Shown here in pieces: positions 55,394 to 59,932 of a stretch of DNA of 64,000 nucleotides. The stretch lies in NCBI RefSeq assembly GCF_016903815.1, contig NZ_CP069973.1. One strand, written 5' to 3'. The notes under the pieces were generated by a model. That model saw only the letters and a program-made list of their open reading frames with translations, made no database searches and was not told the DNA's origin. Position numbers and translations under genes: made by a program. Position 1 is the stretch's first letter. Every line of letters begins with the position of its first letter. The DNA is from Escherichia coli (GTDB lineage: Bacteria > Pseudomonadota > Gammaproteobacteria > Enterobacterales > Enterobacteriaceae).

Positions 55394-55442
55394 AGCTGTT
55401 CTCTTTTATACTGTGGCCTGACCTTAACATGCGACGCAGACG

Positions 55443-55745
55443 ATGACACCCTGGTTTCTTTACTTGATCCGTACCGCCGACAATAAGCTTTATACCGGGA
55501 TCACCACAGATGTCGAACGCCGCTATCAGCAGCACCAAAGCGGCAAAGGGGCGAAAGCACTGCGCGGGAAAGGAGAACTAACGCTGGCGTTTTCCGCGCC
55601 AGTGGGCGATCGTTCACTGGCACTACGGGCGGAATATCGCGTTAAGAAACTGACCAAACGGCAAAAAGAGCGTCTGGTAGCGGAAGGCGCAGGGTTTGCA
55701 GAGCTGTTGAGCAGCCTGCAAACCCCGGAGATTAAAAGCGATTGA
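55443..55745 (+). CDS. yhbQ: GIY-YIG domain endonuclease-like protein
   Basis: 100-aa [49 protein letters not shown]... Confidence 0.88.
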
Positions 55746-56235
55746 AGTGCTCGTGATACTCAACCAGACCGGTTACGCCGTTCAGCGCGTCATCCGCTAA
55801 ACGATGTACCTGGAAGGCGCTTTCAGTGCCCGGCCAGCAGCAACGCAGATCGTGATGCGCCGCCAGCTCAAAGCCGAAACGACTGTACAGCGCCGGATCG
55901 CCCAGCGTCACCACTGCGGCATAGCCGAACTCATTAAGCGAATCGAGTCCTTCATAGACCAGTTGGCGTGCCAGCCCCTGTCCACGGTATTTTTCATCAA
56001 CCGCCAACGGTGCCATGCCGACCCATTGCAGGTCTTCGCCCTGCACATCAACCGGACTAAATGCCACATAGCCAATGACCTGACCTTCGTCATCTGTCGC
56101 CACCAGCCCCAGCGTCAGAAAGCCATCTTCACGCAGATCGTGAACCAGCTTCGCTTCCGCATCACTTTCGAATGAACGACGCAGCAGGGCATCAATACCC
56201 GGCGCATCAATGGGAATTTCTACTCGAATTAGCAT
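55732..56235 (-). CDS. yhbS: GNAT-family N-acetyltransferase
   Basis: 167-aa [64 protein letters not shown]... Confidence 0.88.
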
Positions 56236-56753
56236 GGTTCACCTACCGATGTCTGTTTGGTTTCAGGCGCGGTTTTCATTCCCGCCTCAACAAAATCCGC
56301 CAGTTGCAGCAGCATCATGCGTAAGGCTTTCGGCATTTGCTCCAGTTCAATGGCGTCCATCAGGTTTTTCACATACAGCCCCAGCTCCGTATCGCCTTCA
56401 ATCGCCAGCCGACGCTGGAAGAAGAGCGTATCCGGATCTTGTTTACGCGCCGCAATCATCAGCAGATCGCTGGCGTCGGCACTAAAACTCACATCAGCTT
56501 GCGCGTTCTGGCTAACGACCAGTTTGCCATTCACCACCGAGGTAAACCATTGCAGGTCAATATCACGCACATGAATACTTAACCAGCGGCCTTCAAGAAA
56601 CTCCAGCTCGCCATCATCCAGCGCCTGACGGAATTGCCAGCTTAAGACCTGCTCAAGAACCTGGCGTTTTAGCGCAAATGGCGTCAGTTTTACCGGTACA
56701 CTCAACAGAGATGGCCCCAAATGCACAATACGGGAACGCAGTTTATCCAACAC
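56229..56753 (-). CDS. ubiT: SCP2-domain accessory protein of O2-independent ubiquinone synthesis
   Basis: ORF 56229..56777 (TTG); likely GTG start at 56753 giving 174 aa MLDKLRSRIVHLGPSLLSVPVKLTPFALKRQ...; overlaps yhbS start. Confidence 0.8.
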   Translation of the reverse strand: MLDKLRSRIVHLGPSLLSVPVKLTPFALKRQVLEQVLSWQFRQALDDGELEFLEGRWLSIHVRDIDLQWFTSVVNGKLVVSQNAQADVSFSADASDLLMIAARKQDPDTLFFQRRLAIEGDTELGLYVKNLMDAIELEQMPKALRMMLLQLADFVEAGMKTAPETKQTSVGEPC

Positions 56754-56961
56754 GAGTTTTACTCCCTGTTTCAACAATCATCCTATTTTGCCATATCAGA
56801 AAAATAACATAGCGGTATAAATCAACAATTCCATATGAAATTGCTGCTACCACCAATACAACTTTAACTGCCTTAAATCAAAAATTGTCGCAGCAAGGTT
56901 AACTAAAATCCCAGTTCGTTAACATTTTTGCGCTTTGATAGCGCAACCTTCAGGAAAAATT

Positions 56962-57957
56962 ATGGAGCTGCTCTGCCCTGCCGGAAATCTCCCGGCGCTT
57001 AAGGCGGCCATCGAAAACGGCGCAGATGCTGTTTATATCGGGCTAAAAGATGATACTAATGCCCGTCACTTCGCCGGCCTTAACTTTACCGAGAAAAAAT
57101 TGCAGGAAGCGGTGAGTTTTGTCCATCAACATCGCCGCAAACTTCACATCGCGATTAACACTTTTGCGCATCCGGACGGTTACGCCCGCTGGCAGCGCGC
57201 CGTGGATATGGCGGCGCAGCTGGGTGCCGACGCGCTGATCCTCGCCGACCTCGCCATGCTGGAGTACGCCGCCGAGCGTTACCCGCATATTGAACGTCAC
57301 GTATCGGTGCAGGCTTCGGCGACCAATGAAGAGGCGATTAACTTTTATCATCGCCATTTTGACGTTGCACGCGTGGTGCTGCCGCGCGTGTTGTCGATTC
57401 ATCAGGTGAAACAACTGGCGCGGGTCACGCCTGTACCACTGGAAGTATTCGCTTTCGGCAGCCTGTGCATTATGTCGGAAGGCCGTTGCTATCTGTCGTC
57501 GTATCTGACGGGTGAGTCGCCCAACACTGTGGGTGCGTGTTCTCCGGCCCGTTTCGTGCGCTGGCAGCAAACGCCGCAGGGGCTGGAATCCCGCCTGAAC
57601 GAAGTGCTGATCGACCGTTATCAGGACGGCGAAAACGCAGGTTATCCGACGCTGTGTAAAGGGCGTTATCTGGTGGACGGCGAGCGCTATCACGCGCTGG
57701 AAGAACCCACCAGTCTCAATACCCTGGAACTGCTGCCGGAGTTAATGGCGGCGAATATCGCTTCGGTGAAAATTGAAGGCCGCCAGCGTAGCCCGGCGTA
57801 TGTCGGCCAGGTGGCAAAAGTCTGGCGTCAGGCTATCGACCGTTGTAAGGCCGATCCGCAAAACTTCATACCGCAAAGCGCGTGGATGGAGACGCTCGGG
57901 TCGATGTCCGAAGGCACGCAGACCACCCTTGGCGCGTATCACCGTAAATGGCAGTGA
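56962..57957 (+). CDS. ubiU: U32-family protein UbiU (O2-independent ubiquinone hydroxylation)
   Basis: ORF 56935..57957; MELLCPAGNLPALKAAIENGADAVYIGLKDDTNARHFAGLNFTEKK... (331 aa); Cys cluster CIMSEGRC...C. Confidence 0.88.
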   Translation: MELLCPAGNLPALKAAIENGADAVYIGLKDDTNARHFAGLNFTEKKLQEAVSFVHQHRRKLHIAINTFAHPDGYARWQRAVDMAAQLGADALILADLAMLEYAAERYPHIERHVSVQASATNEEAINFYHRHFDVARVVLPRVLSIHQVKQLARVTPVPLEVFAFGSLCIMSEGRCYLSSYLTGESPNTVGACSPARFVRWQQTPQGLESRLNEVLIDRYQDGENAGYPTLCKGRYLVDGERYHALEEPTSLNTLELLPELMAANIASVKIEGRQRSPAYVGQVAKVWRQAIDRCKADPQNFIPQSAWMETLGSMSEGTQTTLGAYHRKWQ

Positions 57958-57965
57958 GAAGAGCA

Positions 57966-58844
57966 ATGAAATATTCCTTAGGGCCAGTGCTGTGGTACTG
58001 GCCAAAAGAGACGCTGGAAGAATTTTATCAGCAGGCCGCCACCAGCAGCGCCGACGTGATTTATCTTGGTGAAGCGGTCTGTAGCAAGCGCCGGGCAACC
58101 AAAGTTGGCGACTGGCTGGAGATGGCAAAATCGCTCGCCGGAAGTGGTAAGCAGATTGTGCTCTCCACGCTGGCGCTGGTGCAGGCATCCTCCGAACTGG
58201 GCGAACTGAAACGCTATGTTGAGAACGGTGAGTTTCTGATTGAAGCCAGCGATCTCGGCGTGGTGAATATGTGCGCTGAACGCAAACTGCCGTTCGTCGC
58301 CGGGCACGCGCTGAACTGCTACAACGCGGTGACACTGAAAATATTGCTCAAACAGGGCATGATGCGCTGGTGTATGCCGGTGGAGCTATCCCGCGACTGG
58401 CTGGTGAATCTGCTTAATCAGTGCGATGAGCTGGGCATTCGCAACCAGTTTGAAGTGGAAGTCCTGAGCTACGGTCATCTGCCGCTGGCCTACTCCGCCC
58501 GCTGCTTTACCGCGCGTTCGGAAGACCGCCCGAAAGATGAGTGTGAAACCTGCTGCATTAAGTATCCGAACGGGCGCAACGTGCTATCGCAGGAAAACCA
58601 ACAAGTGTTTGTACTCAATGGCATTCAGACCATGAGCGGCTACGTTTACAACCTCGGTAACGAGCTGACATCCATGCAGGGGCTGGTCGATGTGGTCCGC
58701 CTGTCACCGCAGGGTACTGACACTTTCGCGATGCTCGACGCCTTCCGCGCTAATGAAAATGGCGCGGCACCACTGCCGTTGACGGCAAACAGCGATTGTA
58801 ACGGCTACTGGCGGCGGCTGGCCGGGCTGGAGCTGCAAGCGTAA
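57966..58844 (+). CDS. ubiV: U32-family protein UbiV
   Basis: ORF 57948..58844; MKYSLGPVLWYWPKETLEEFYQQAATSSADVIYLGEAVCSKRR... (292 aa). Confidence 0.88.
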   Translation: MKYSLGPVLWYWPKETLEEFYQQAATSSADVIYLGEAVCSKRRATKVGDWLEMAKSLAGSGKQIVLSTLALVQASSELGELKRYVENGEFLIEASDLGVVNMCAERKLPFVAGHALNCYNAVTLKILLKQGMMRWCMPVELSRDWLVNLLNQCDELGIRNQFEVEVLSYGHLPLAYSARCFTARSEDRPKDECETCCIKYPNGRNVLSQENQQVFVLNGIQTMSGYVYNLGNELTSMQGLVDVVRLSPQGTDTFAMLDAFRANENGAAPLPLTANSDCNGYWRRLAGLELQA

Positions 58845-58850
58845 GTATAT

Positions 58851-58921
58851 AGCTCACTTTGTTAACAACTTTAACTACTCTTTAATGCAGTATTAAAGAT
58901 TAATCGGTAACAAAGTGAGCT
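58851..58921. other. nested inverted repeat (15-16-bp outer arms, 7-bp inner palindrome) in ubiV-yhbW spacer
   Basis: agctcactttgttaac (58851-58866) ... ggtaacaaagtgagct (58906-58921); inner ctttaat-gcagt-attaaag; AT-rich centre. Confidence 0.6.
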
Positions 58922-58924
58922 GTT

Positions 58925-59932
58925 ATGACTGATAAAACCATTCCGTTTTCGCTACTCGATCTGGCCCCTATTCCCGAAGGTTCTTCAGCGCGAGAAGCGT
59001 TCTCCCACTCTCTCGACCTCGCCCGTCTGGCTGAAAAGCGCGGCTATCATCGCTACTGGCTGGCTGAACACCACAATATGACCGGTATTGCCAGTGCTGC
59101 AACATCAGTATTGATTGGCTATCTGGCGGCGAATACCACTACGCTGCATCTGGGGTCTGGCGGCGTGATGTTGCCTAATCACTCACCATTGGTGATCGCC
59201 GAACAGTTCGGCACGCTTAATACGCTCTATCCGGGGCGAATCGATTTGGGGCTGGGTCGTGCTCCGGGTAGTGACCAGCGAACCATGATGGCTCTACGTC
59301 GTCATATGAGCGGCGATATTGATAATTTCCCCCGCGATGTCGCGGAGCTGGTGGACTGGTTTGACGCCCGCGATCCCAATCCGCATGTGCGCCCGGTACC
59401 GGGCTATGGCGAGAAAATCCCCGTGTGGTTGTTAGGCTCCAGCCTTTACAGCGCGCAACTGGCGGCGCAGCTTGGTCTGCCGTTTGCGTTTGCCTCACAC
59501 TTCGCGCCGGATATGTTGTTCCAGGCGCTGCATCTTTATCGCAGCAACTTCAAACCGTCGGCACGGCTGGAAAAACCGTATGCGATGGTGTGCATCAATA
59601 TTATCGCCGCCGACAGCAACCGCGACGCTGAATTTCTCTTTACCTCAATGCAGCAAGCCTTTGTGAAGCTGCGCCGTGGCGAAACCGGGCAACTACCGCC
59701 GCCGATTCAAAATATGGATCAGTTCTGGTCACCGTCCGAGCAGTATGGCGTGCAGCAGGCGCTGAGTATGTCGCTGGTGGGTGATAAAGCGAAAGTGCGT
59801 CATGGCTTGCAGTCGATCCTGCGCGAAACCGACGCCGATGAGATTATGGTTAACGGGCAGATTTTCGACCACCAGGCGCGCCTGCATTCGTTTGAACTGG
59901 CGATGGATGTTAAGGAAGAGTTGTTGGGATAG
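58925..59932 (+). CDS. yhbW: luciferase-like (LLM-class) flavin-dependent monooxygenase
   Basis: 335-aa [64 protein letters not shown]... Confidence 0.9.

Follow-up and report, generated by a model that had tools for sequence, protein, structure and literature searches.

The window, by which we mean the whole 64,000-nucleotide stretch of Escherichia coli DNA analyzed here, almost certainly carries the O2-independent ubiquinone locus of this species, arranged as two divergent units, yhbS-ubiT and ubiU-ubiV, that share a 208-bp control region. The locus is chromosomal, matched several sequenced strains at 100%, and was found in 5424 of 5426 complete E. coli genomes. The original prediction had ubiT diverging from ubiU-ubiV within positions 56229–58844. 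Both the arrangement (ubiT on the minus strand, ubiU-ubiV on the plus strand) and the span were confirmed by the open reading frames and the RefSeq gene models, and the span begins and ends exactly at the stop codons of ubiT and ubiV. The features of the locus are as follows:

55732..56235, minus strand: yhbS, GNAT-family N-acetyltransferase, 167 aa (open reading frame, RefSeq and Pfam)
56229..56235, minus strand: 7-nt overlap ATGCTAA of the ubiT stop (TAA) and the yhbS start (ATG), read from the sequence
56229..56753, minus strand: ubiT (yhbT), SCP2-domain accessory factor, 174 aa, GTG start (RefSeq, NCBIfam and Pfam)
56239..56244, minus strand: AGGTGA, putative Shine-Dalgarno-like sequence for yhbS within the final codons of ubiT, 3 nt ahead of the ATG (sequence)
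56761..56766, minus strand: GGGAGT, Shine-Dalgarno of ubiT, 7 nt before the GTG (sequence, conserved across loci)
56785..56793, minus strand: TGGCAAAAT, putative extended -10 of the Fnr-dependent proximal promoter ubiTp2 (conservation)
56812..56825, minus strand: Fnr site F2, TTGATTTATACCGC, activates ubiTp2 (identical to the site mutated in published work)
56853..56858, minus strand: TATTGG, putative -10 of the constitutive distal promoter ubiTp1 (CAATAC conserved upstream of F1)
56868..56881, minus strand: Fnr site F1, TTGATTTAAGGCAG, activates the ubiUV promoter, ubiUVp (identical to the site mutated in published work)
56904..56909, plus strand: TAAAAT, -10 of the Fnr-dependent ubiUV promoter (conserved block)
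56962..57957, plus strand: ubiU (yhbU), U32-family 4Fe-4S protein, 331 aa (NCBIfam, Pfam and cysteines)
57958..57965, plus strand: 8-nt spacer from the ubiU stop to the ubiV start (RefSeq)
57966..58844, plus strand: ubiV (yhbV), U32-family 4Fe-4S protein, 292 aa (NCBIfam, Pfam and cysteines)

The K-12 locus was described by Pelosi et al. (mBio 2019, PMC6747719) and Arias-Cartin et al. (mBio 2023, PMC10470549), and its function, its regulation and the co-transcription of yhbS are already known from work published in 2019–2024. The RefSeq gene models of strain 7/2 and of MG1655 map one-to-one onto the window. Relative to K-12 MG1655 (b3156–b3159), the gene order, strands and lengths are identical, as are the 7-nt ubiT/yhbS overlap, the 8-nt ubiU/ubiV spacer and the 208-bp length of the intergenic region with its F1 and F2 sequences. 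Over 4490 bp, the identity is 97.75%, with 101 substitutions and no indels. The single substitution in the intergenic region, at 56933, lies outside the Fnr sites and downstream of the ubiUV promoter. From K-12 to the window, the amino acid changes are V117A in UbiT, I190V, S282G and V303I in UbiU, A235T in UbiV and R133C in YhbS. UbiU and UbiV thus differ from their near-identical K-12 counterparts by one to three conservative substitutions, and no Fe-S cysteine is affected.

Two gene boundaries differ from those first proposed. UbiT had been started at TTG 56777, leaving a control region of 184 bp (56778–56961, given as about 200 bp). In RefSeq, both strain 7/2 and MG1655 have GTG 56753 instead, and because ubiT starts there, the control region is 56754–56961, or 208 bp. 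The start codon is GTG in 62 of 75 related loci, preceded at 7–8 nt by a conserved GGAGT Shine-Dalgarno. Co-expression of ubiU and ubiV had been deduced from an overlap of a few nucleotides; the 8-nt spacer is fully compatible with co-expression, but the overlap itself disappears with the annotated ubiV start, since it arises only if ubiV begins at ATG 57948. Annotation and comparative data together place the ubiV start at 57966. Of 71 related loci, 70 have a ubiU-ubiV gap of 7–20 nt, with the homologous start clear of ubiU in every one of these; the residues encoded from that start are MKY in 66 loci, and MQY, MQF or MRY in the remaining five.

We considered the longer gene model, in which ubiV starts at ATG 57948 with a 10-nt ubiU overlap and ubiT at TTG 56777, to be very improbable. 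Both longer frames are open in the window, a 182-aa UbiT is found in a minority of database entries, and an upstream ATG lies in the ubiV frame at loci where the gap is 8, 11 or 14 nt. However, this ATG is part of AAA-TGG, which encodes the conserved Lys-Trp of the UbiU C-terminus, so that it is forced by UbiU; it falls in the ubiV frame only if the gap is 2 modulo 3, and at gaps of 7, 9, 10, 12, 13, 16 and 18 nt it either lies in another frame or runs into a stop. In many species, the spacer carries an AGGAG-like Shine-Dalgarno ahead of the conserved ubiV ATG, and the published cysteine numbering of UbiV (PMC6747719) fits the 292-aa protein only. For ubiT, many loci have an in-frame stop 9–33 nt upstream of the GTG, precluding a longer N-terminus, and the published ubiTp2 transcription start (at about 56778–56779) would leave the TTG leaderless. 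The shorter forms are those used by RefSeq and MG1655.

Curated family models and the published Fe-S cysteines bore out the gene identities. UbiU passed the NCBIfam equivalog NF047963 with 559 bits (cut-off 440) and matched Pfam Peptidase_U32 at 2.8e-67; its score against the TrhP model was 164, far short of the cut-off of 534. UbiV passed NF047965 with 363.1 bits (cut-off 275), with a Peptidase_U32 match at 1.2e-9. UbiT passed NF047962 (SCP2_dom_UbiT equivalog) with 153.3 bits (cut-off 46.9), matched Pfam SCP2 at 1.2e-19, and had a weak, though significant, sequence similarity to solved structures of sterol carrier protein 2. A word-indexed protein search with UbiT returned near-identical enterobacterial proteins alone and was replaced by a representative-library search and alignment. 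A sequence search of solved structures gave no match for UbiU or UbiV. The eight Fe-S ligand cysteines defined for the two proteins (PMC6747719) are all present: C169, C176, C193 and C232 in UbiU (CX6CX16CX38C), and C39, C180, C193 and C197 in UbiV (CXnCX12CX3C), numbered from ATG 57966. The PGAP name for ubiV is still "U32 family peptidase".

The equivalogs and publications agree with the functions first proposed, namely that UbiU and UbiV are U32 proteins and UbiT an SCP2 protein of O2-independent ubiquinone synthesis. Taken literally, the Pfam matches to Peptidase_U32 (collagenase-like) and the PGAP label would make UbiU and UbiV peptidases. This reading has a negligible probability: genetics and biochemistry show that both are Fe-S proteins required for the O2-independent ubiquinone hydroxylations (PMC6747719, PMC10990095), in which prephenate supplies the oxygen (PMC10990095); other U32 proteins, related to these, hydroxylate RNA (PMC10990095); and the NCBIfam equivalogs are ubiquinone anaerobic biosynthesis proteins. 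UbiT is homologous to UbiJ, the SCP2 factor of the aerobic Ubi complex, for which the same role has been proposed in the other O2 regime (PMC6747719). UbiJ is encoded in ubiE-ubiJ-ubiB, whereas UbiT is encoded with ubiUV and not with ubiE or ubiB. Unlike UbiJ, UbiT is under dual control, Fnr-dependent and constitutive, and has a GTG start.

The original prediction suggested looking in the control region for an FNR half-site pair, TTGAT-N4-ATCAA. No such pair was found in 56754–56961 with up to two mismatches, and in the whole window this pattern gave 39 matches against 34 expected. Both published Fnr sites, F1 and F2, were nevertheless found exactly. The strict consensus scan was consequently rejected as a test of this locus, being a false negative: the validated sites have three mismatches each (7 of 10 consensus positions), and because F1 and F2 are half-consensus sites, the scan would wrongly have spoken against Fnr control. 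Each has one consensus half (TTGAT), while the other half is CTGCC in F1 and GCGGT in F2; the non-consensus halves match the consensus at two of five bases, one of them the G at position 3, and are conserved across genera. When sites with up to three mismatches and one perfect half-site were counted, two were observed against 0.22–0.36 expected. Judged from the single sequence, F1 and F2 are only marginally above chance (P ≈ 0.05 against shuffles).

The case for Fnr control rests instead on conservation and on published mutagenesis. Of 62 related intergenic regions, 61 retain the F1 sequence CTGCCnnAAATCAA, and about 49 of 63 retain the F2 sequence GCGGnnnnAATCAAC; both sites are conserved across Enterobacterales, as are the -10 elements that go with them. 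Experiments on identical site sequences, by ChIP-seq, GFP fusions and chromosomal mutants of F1 and F2, have established that Fnr controls the intergenic region (PMC10470549). Mutation of F1 abolishes UbiV production, and mutation of F2 abolishes the anaerobic induction of UbiT (PMC10470549). A CTAaAAT block is conserved 22 nt past F1 in nearly all loci, and the center of F1 therefore lies at about -41.5, with 29.5 bp between it and the start of the conserved -10 hexamer downstream. F2 lies at about -40 to -40.5 by its conserved -10 element. In position both resemble the sites of class II Fnr/CRP-type promoters, which are centered near -41.5, and Fnr activation through F1 and F2 has been published (PMC10470549); they differ in having a single consensus half each.

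On the ubiT side, CTATTTTGCCA is conserved in most of 62 intergenic regions, at a position that fits the published ubiTp2 transcription start, 33 nt from F2 (PMC10470549). The ubiTp1 start is 19 nt from F2 (PMC10470549); the TATTGG hexamer lies about 7 nt upstream of it and 17 nt from TTGATT. The TTGATT half of F1 (56876–56881) probably doubles as the -35 of ubiTp1. A generic promoter scan of 55400–59100 returned one promoter-like site (56935–56963), fewer than in shuffled sequences, and terminator-like sites in the same interval were at chance level; neither scan was informative. A permissive Rfam search gave two sub-threshold chance matches alone (mir-1285 and a CRISPR repeat).

Taken together with the published experiments, the locus works as follows. 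Rightward, ubiU and ubiV are co-transcribed from one Fnr-activated promoter, with F1 about 41.5 bp upstream of the start, followed by TAAAAT. By extension from the near-identical K-12 proteins, UbiU and UbiV would form a heterodimer of U32-family 4Fe-4S proteins that carries out the three ubiquinone ring hydroxylations without O2, with prephenate as the oxygen donor. Leftward, ubiT and yhbS are co-transcribed from two promoters, the proximal ubiTp2, activated by Fnr via F2, and the distal ubiTp1, which is constitutive and seems to use the TTGATT half of F1 as its -35. UbiT, an SCP2 lipid-binding accessory factor, is made with and without O2, and the GNAT acetyltransferase encoded by yhbS is dispensable for ubiquinone synthesis. 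The protein functions, the Fe-S ligands, the Fnr dependence via F1 and F2 and the ubiT-yhbS co-transcription come from published experiments; the sequence identity, the gene boundaries and the cross-species conservation of sites, promoters and junctions are results of the present analysis.

Gene order was compared in a sample of 80 gammaproteobacterial ubiT loci. In 73 of the 80, yhbS follows ubiT with a stop/start overlap, so the linkage of the two genes, which the original prediction had suggested examining, is conserved. The overlap that had been predicted in the window is real (7 nt, ATGCTAA, on the same strand), and a stop/start overlap recurs in all 73 yhbS-bearing loci, with a length of 7 nt in 65, 11 nt in five and 17 nt in three, and spans Enterobacterales, Plesiomonas and Vibrionaceae. 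The pair is the most persistent adjacency of the neighborhood: ubiT-yhbS was kept in 73 of 73 loci, compared to 64 of 73 for ubiT-ubiU, 57 of 62 for yhbS-yhbQ and 45 of 51 for yhbQ-yhbP. In Vibrionaceae and the Plesiomonas MAG (L071), ubiT and yhbS are still joined where ubiUV sits 2.4–2.6 kb from ubiT; in Photobacterium (L070) and one other locus (L088) a PAS-GGDEF-EAL gene lies in between. More distant ubiT genes (39–53% identity), which retain divergent ubiUV, have no yhbS beside them, nor do those of Orbales.

The arrangement corresponds to architecture 3 of a Pseudomonadota survey (ISME J 2024, PMC11707229), in which ubiV follows ubiU, ubiT is on the opposite strand within 500 bp and one or more FNR sites lie between them. 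With its 8-nt U-V spacer and 208-bp T-U region the window has this architecture, in common with 64 of the 73 related loci. In the survey, a predicted FNR site was present in 96% of divergent ubiT/ubiUV loci (PMC11707229). The survey did not include yhbS, which in the present comparison is a conserved fourth gene of the locus, confined to Enterobacterales and Vibrionaceae.

YhbS matched Pfam Acetyltransf_1 (PF00583) at 8e-12 and is essentially identical in sequence to the solved structure 4RS2. No NCBIfam model reached its cut-off (best 24 bits against 154), and no subfamily of known substrate was indicated. RT-PCR showed that ubiT and yhbS form one transcription unit, and the YhbS protein is induced in an Fnr-dependent manner (PMC10470549). 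Because the yhbS start codon overlaps the ubiT stop, yhbS is probably translationally coupled to ubiT. In Enterobacteriaceae, yhbS also has a putative Shine-Dalgarno of its own, AGGTGA; GTAGGTGA is conserved within this family, but the conservation does not extend to Yersiniaceae or Pectobacteriaceae.

Since ubiT-yhbS is the most persistent adjacency, YhbS may have a function tied to UbiT. We considered whether the linkage is functional rather than incidental, with YhbS belonging to the physiological module of UbiT and the conserved overlap fixing the UbiT:YhbS ratio; examples of such a role would be the anaerobic-to-aerobic transition, acylation of lipids, quinone intermediates or protein partners, or Hfq-mediated respiratory regulation. 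The universal overlap among yhbS-bearing loci, its persistence despite a poorly conserved UbiT C-terminal tail, and the pair staying joined when ubiUV has moved away all argue in this direction, and overproduction of YhbS perturbs Hfq and small-RNA signaling (bioRxiv 10.1101/2021.05.11.443692). However, a yhbS deletion is normal for anaerobic UQ8, nitrate respiration and the shift from -O2 to +O2, and has no synthetic effect with menA (PMC10470549). The gene is missing beside the distant ubiT genes and in Orbales. Furthermore, the 73 loci represent three overlap configurations only and are phylogenetically non-independent, and the pattern could reflect one ancestral fusion that is hard to break. 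On balance, we regard a functional tie as rather unlikely.

The locus is of biological importance in that it lets facultative anaerobes, gut E. coli included, make ubiquinone without O2 by an unusual prephenate-dependent hydroxylation; this is already established in publications, as are the Fnr sites and the co-transcription of yhbS. The additions made here are modest: the corrected gene boundaries; the finding that a strict Fnr-consensus scan is a false negative at this locus; the cross-genus conservation of both half-consensus Fnr sites and their -10 elements; and the occurrence of the ubiT/yhbS overlap throughout Enterobacterales and Vibrionaceae, not beyond.

The spacer between ubiV and yhbW is filled by a conserved hairpin, with its 5' arm at 58851–58864. 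Its reading as an intrinsic terminator was rejected because no U-run follows it. The hairpin may prevent translation of the O2-dependent monooxygenase YhbW from anaerobic transcripts that read through from ubiUV. We regard both this role of the hairpin and a UbiT-tied function of YhbS missed by the published deletion assays as unlikely.

The DNA at 55.4–59.1 kb of the window belongs to the E. coli chromosome. Searched as a 3.7-kb query, it matched several sequenced strains at 100% identity, and 5424 of the 5426 complete E. coli genomes contain it. Gene coordinates were obtained by mapping the RefSeq models of strain 7/2 and K-12 MG1655 onto the window.

Genes of the locus (RefSeq models)
55443–55745, + strand: yhbQ
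55732–56235, − strand: yhbS
56229–56753, − strand: ubiT
56962–57957, + strand: ubiU
57966–58844, + strand: ubiV
58925–59932, + strand: yhbW

The span singled out in the original prediction, 56229–58844, ends exactly at the ubiT and ubiV stops, and the divergence of ubiT from ubiU-ubiV is real. That prediction was correct in substance and wrong in two boundary details, and the system is already known in full. Compared to MG1655, the region 55443–59932 is 97.75% identical, with 101 substitutions and no indels, and the ubiT-ubiU intergenic region carries a single substitution, at 56933 (1 in 208). The divergence from K-12 is uneven, with 2 changes in the 525 nt of ubiT versus 26/996 in ubiU, 19/879 in ubiV and 36/1008 in yhbW, a pattern that may stem from a recombination boundary or from ubiT and its promoters being under stronger constraint. 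The convergent yhbQ and yhbS genes overlap by 14 nt at their 3' ends (55732–55745), and a comparable overlap occurs in many Enterobacteriaceae loci.

The assignment of UbiU, UbiV and UbiT to O2-independent ubiquinone synthesis is borne out by published work (PMC6747719; PMC10990095) and by equivalog scores above the cut-offs.

Family assignments of the encoded proteins
UbiT: NCBIfam equivalog, 153 bits (cut-off 47); Pfam SCP2; Fe-S cysteines not applicable
UbiU: NCBIfam equivalog, 559 bits (cut-off 440); Pfam Peptidase_U32; C169, C176, C193 and C232 present
UbiV: NCBIfam equivalog, 363 bits (cut-off 275); Pfam Peptidase_U32; C39, C180, C193 and C197 present
YhbS: no NCBIfam equivalog at cut-off; Pfam GNAT (Acetyltransf_1); Fe-S cysteines not applicable

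YhbS is essentially the same protein as the structural-genomics structure 4RS2, and no solved structure was detectable by sequence for UbiU or UbiV.

The ubiT start had been placed at TTG 56777, giving the longest ORF, while the annotated start is GTG 56753. The start codon is GTG in 62 of 75 related loci across the Enterobacterales (window 56751–56753; homologous positions in loci L002–L081), with a GGAGT Shine-Dalgarno sequence 7–8 nt 5' of the start throughout. Many species have an in-frame stop 9–33 nt upstream, which excludes an N-terminal extension there. The wide retention of a non-ATG start suggests selection for a deliberately modest translation rate. With ubiT starting at GTG 56753, the shared control region, expected at about 200 bp, does exist, but its true extent is 208 bp (56754–56961).

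A literal search of this intergenic region for TTGAT-N4-ATCAA with up to two mismatches gave no matches, and the whole window held 39 versus 34 expected, which is chance level. Taken at face value, this result would have refuted the original prediction. Published work shows otherwise. Two Fnr sites have been published: F1, TTGATTTAAGGCAG, with the ubiUV transcription start 36 nt downstream of it (Arias-Cartin et al. 2023, PMC10470549), and F2, TTGATTTATACCGC, 33 nt upstream of the proximal ubiT promoter ubiTp2 and 19 nt downstream of the distal promoter ubiTp1, which is Fnr-independent (PMC10470549). GFP fusions and chromosomal mutants showed that anaerobic UbiV production needs F1 and anaerobic UbiT induction needs F2 (PMC10470549). 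The strict half-site pair is absent, but F1 and F2 are present exactly, at 56868–56881 and 56812–56825, each with one perfect half-site and mismatches at 3/10 positions. The window-wide rate predicts 0.22 sites of this quality in 208 bp, against the two observed, and shuffles of the AT-rich intergenic region give 0.36 (P ≈ 0.05 for at least two); judged from a single sequence, the sites are only suggestive.

The comparative data comprise a diverse UbiT alignment and 80 loci, fetched from one-genome-per-species contigs and spanning Enterobacterales, Orbales and Vibrionaceae (UbiT identity 51–97%). Conservation was scored in the 62 loci where divergently arranged ubiT and ubiU flank an intergenic region of 199–419 bp. 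The F1 block CTGCCnnAAATCAA was recognisable in 61 of these 62, and its non-consensus half CTGCC, which retains the TG of TTGAT, is also conserved. A conserved CTAaAAT 22 nt after F1 is the ubiUV −10 element (TAAAAT at 56904–56909); taking the start 7 nt after it, this spacing centres F1 at −41.5. On the upstream side of F1 lies a conserved CAATAC, whose reverse complement is a TATTG(g/a) −10 element; this element is 17 nt from the minus-strand F1 half-site TTGATT, and the published ubiTp1 start follows it by ≈7 nt. From this spacing and position we infer that the F1 half-site probably doubles as the −35 element of the constitutive leftward promoter. F2 (GCGGnnnnAATCAAC) was recognisable in ≈49 of 63 regions, and a conserved extended −10 element, TGGCAAAAT, at 56785–56793 (−) puts it near −40.5. 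This conservation agrees with a pan-Pseudomonadota survey in which 96% of the loci with divergent ubiT and ubiUV had a predicted FNR site (PMC11707229).

At low O2, Fnr bound at F1 turns on ubiUV, and Fnr bound at F2 turns on ubiTp2. The O2-independent hydroxylations of ubiquinone synthesis require the UbiU-UbiV heterodimer, which has one 4Fe-4S cluster per subunit (PMC6747719), and prephenate is the source of their oxygen atoms (PMC10990095). UbiT, an SCP2 lipid-binding homologue of UbiJ, is produced in the presence as well as the absence of O2, owing to its constitutive distal promoter, and aids the anaerobic-to-aerobic transition (PMC10470549). These steps are already published; the contribution here is sequence-level confirmation and conservation data.

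The predicted ubiT/yhbS overlap is real: the minus strand reads GGTGAACC-ATG-CTAA, and the 7-nt ATGCTAA is common to both genes (yhbS ATG, 56235–56233; ubiT TAA, 56231–56229). Co-conservation held in 73 of 80 loci, with yhbS directly downstream of ubiT and co-oriented with it in all loci from Enterobacterales (a Plesiomonas MAG among them) and Vibrionaceae; only seven Orbales lacked it, and these also had no ubiUV within 5 kb. The genes overlap in 73/73 (7 nt in 65, 11 nt in 5, 17 nt in 3), but since only three configurations occur, the loci are not independent observations. The ubiT-yhbS adjacency (73/73) is more persistent than that of ubiT-ubiU (64/73 within 600 bp), yhbS-yhbQ (57/62) and yhbQ-yhbP (45/51). 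In Vibrionaceae (also loci L074–L080), ubiUV lies ≈2.4 kb from ubiT, with ubiT-yhbS still fused; Photobacterium locus L070 (2697–4736) and the related L088 (2086–3828) have a PAS-GGDEF-EAL gene (cyclic-di-GMP turnover) between ubiT and ubiUV. More distant ubiT genes (39–53% identity) keep divergent ubiUV and lack yhbS, one of them (L090) in the order ubiT-holD-rimI; the linkage is therefore clade-restricted. Downstream, L070 and L088 read ubiT-yhbS-holD-rimI. An Arsenophonus endosymbiont (L059) gave only partial matches to ubiU and yhbS, consistent with gene decay.

Translational coupling of yhbS to ubiT is plausible; Enterobacteriaceae additionally have an AGGTGA Shine-Dalgarno sequence 3 nt before the yhbS ATG. 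The genes share a transcript and YhbS induction is Fnr-dependent; yhbS deletion left anaerobic UQ8, nitrate respiration and O2 shifts unaffected (PMC10470549). Overproduced YhbS silences Hfq-dependent small-RNA signalling (bioRxiv 10.1101/2021.05.11.443692).

The supposed ubiU/ubiV overlap requires a ubiV ATG at 57948; the annotated start, 57966, leaves an 8-nt spacer instead. Of the homologous starts in 71 related loci, 70 are ATG and one is GTG; the encoded N-terminus is MKY in 66 and MQY, MQF or MRY in five. The start lies 7–20 nt 3' of the ubiU stop in 70, the sole exception being a MAG with an early in-frame ubiU stop. The upstream ATG is part of a conserved AAA-TGG (Lys-Trp) at the ubiU end, in frame with ubiV only at gaps of 8, 11, 14 or 20 nt, and the published Fe-S numbering of UbiV (C39, C180, C193, C197; PMC6747719) fits a 292-aa protein, not a 298-aa one. 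The early ubiU stop, in the Enterobacteriaceae MAG L028, could mark a pseudogene or result from misassembly.

The whole ubiV-yhbW spacer (58845–58924) forms a long conserved hairpin. Its 14-nt arms (58851–58864 and 58908–58921), AGCTCACTTTGTTA/TAACAAAGTGAGCT, are perfect inverted repeats, with an inner stem CTTTAAT/ATTAAAG and a predicted RNA fold of −28.4 kcal/mol (z = −5.0). There is no U-run after it, no RefSeq feature in strain 7/2 or MG1655, and no Rfam family. The arms are nearly invariant across 15 Enterobacteriaceae genera, while the centre is variable, with some compensatory changes. Only 3 nt separate the end of the 3' arm from the yhbW ATG. The hairpin could mask yhbW translation on ubiUV read-through transcripts, or its sequence could provide two binding sites for a protein.
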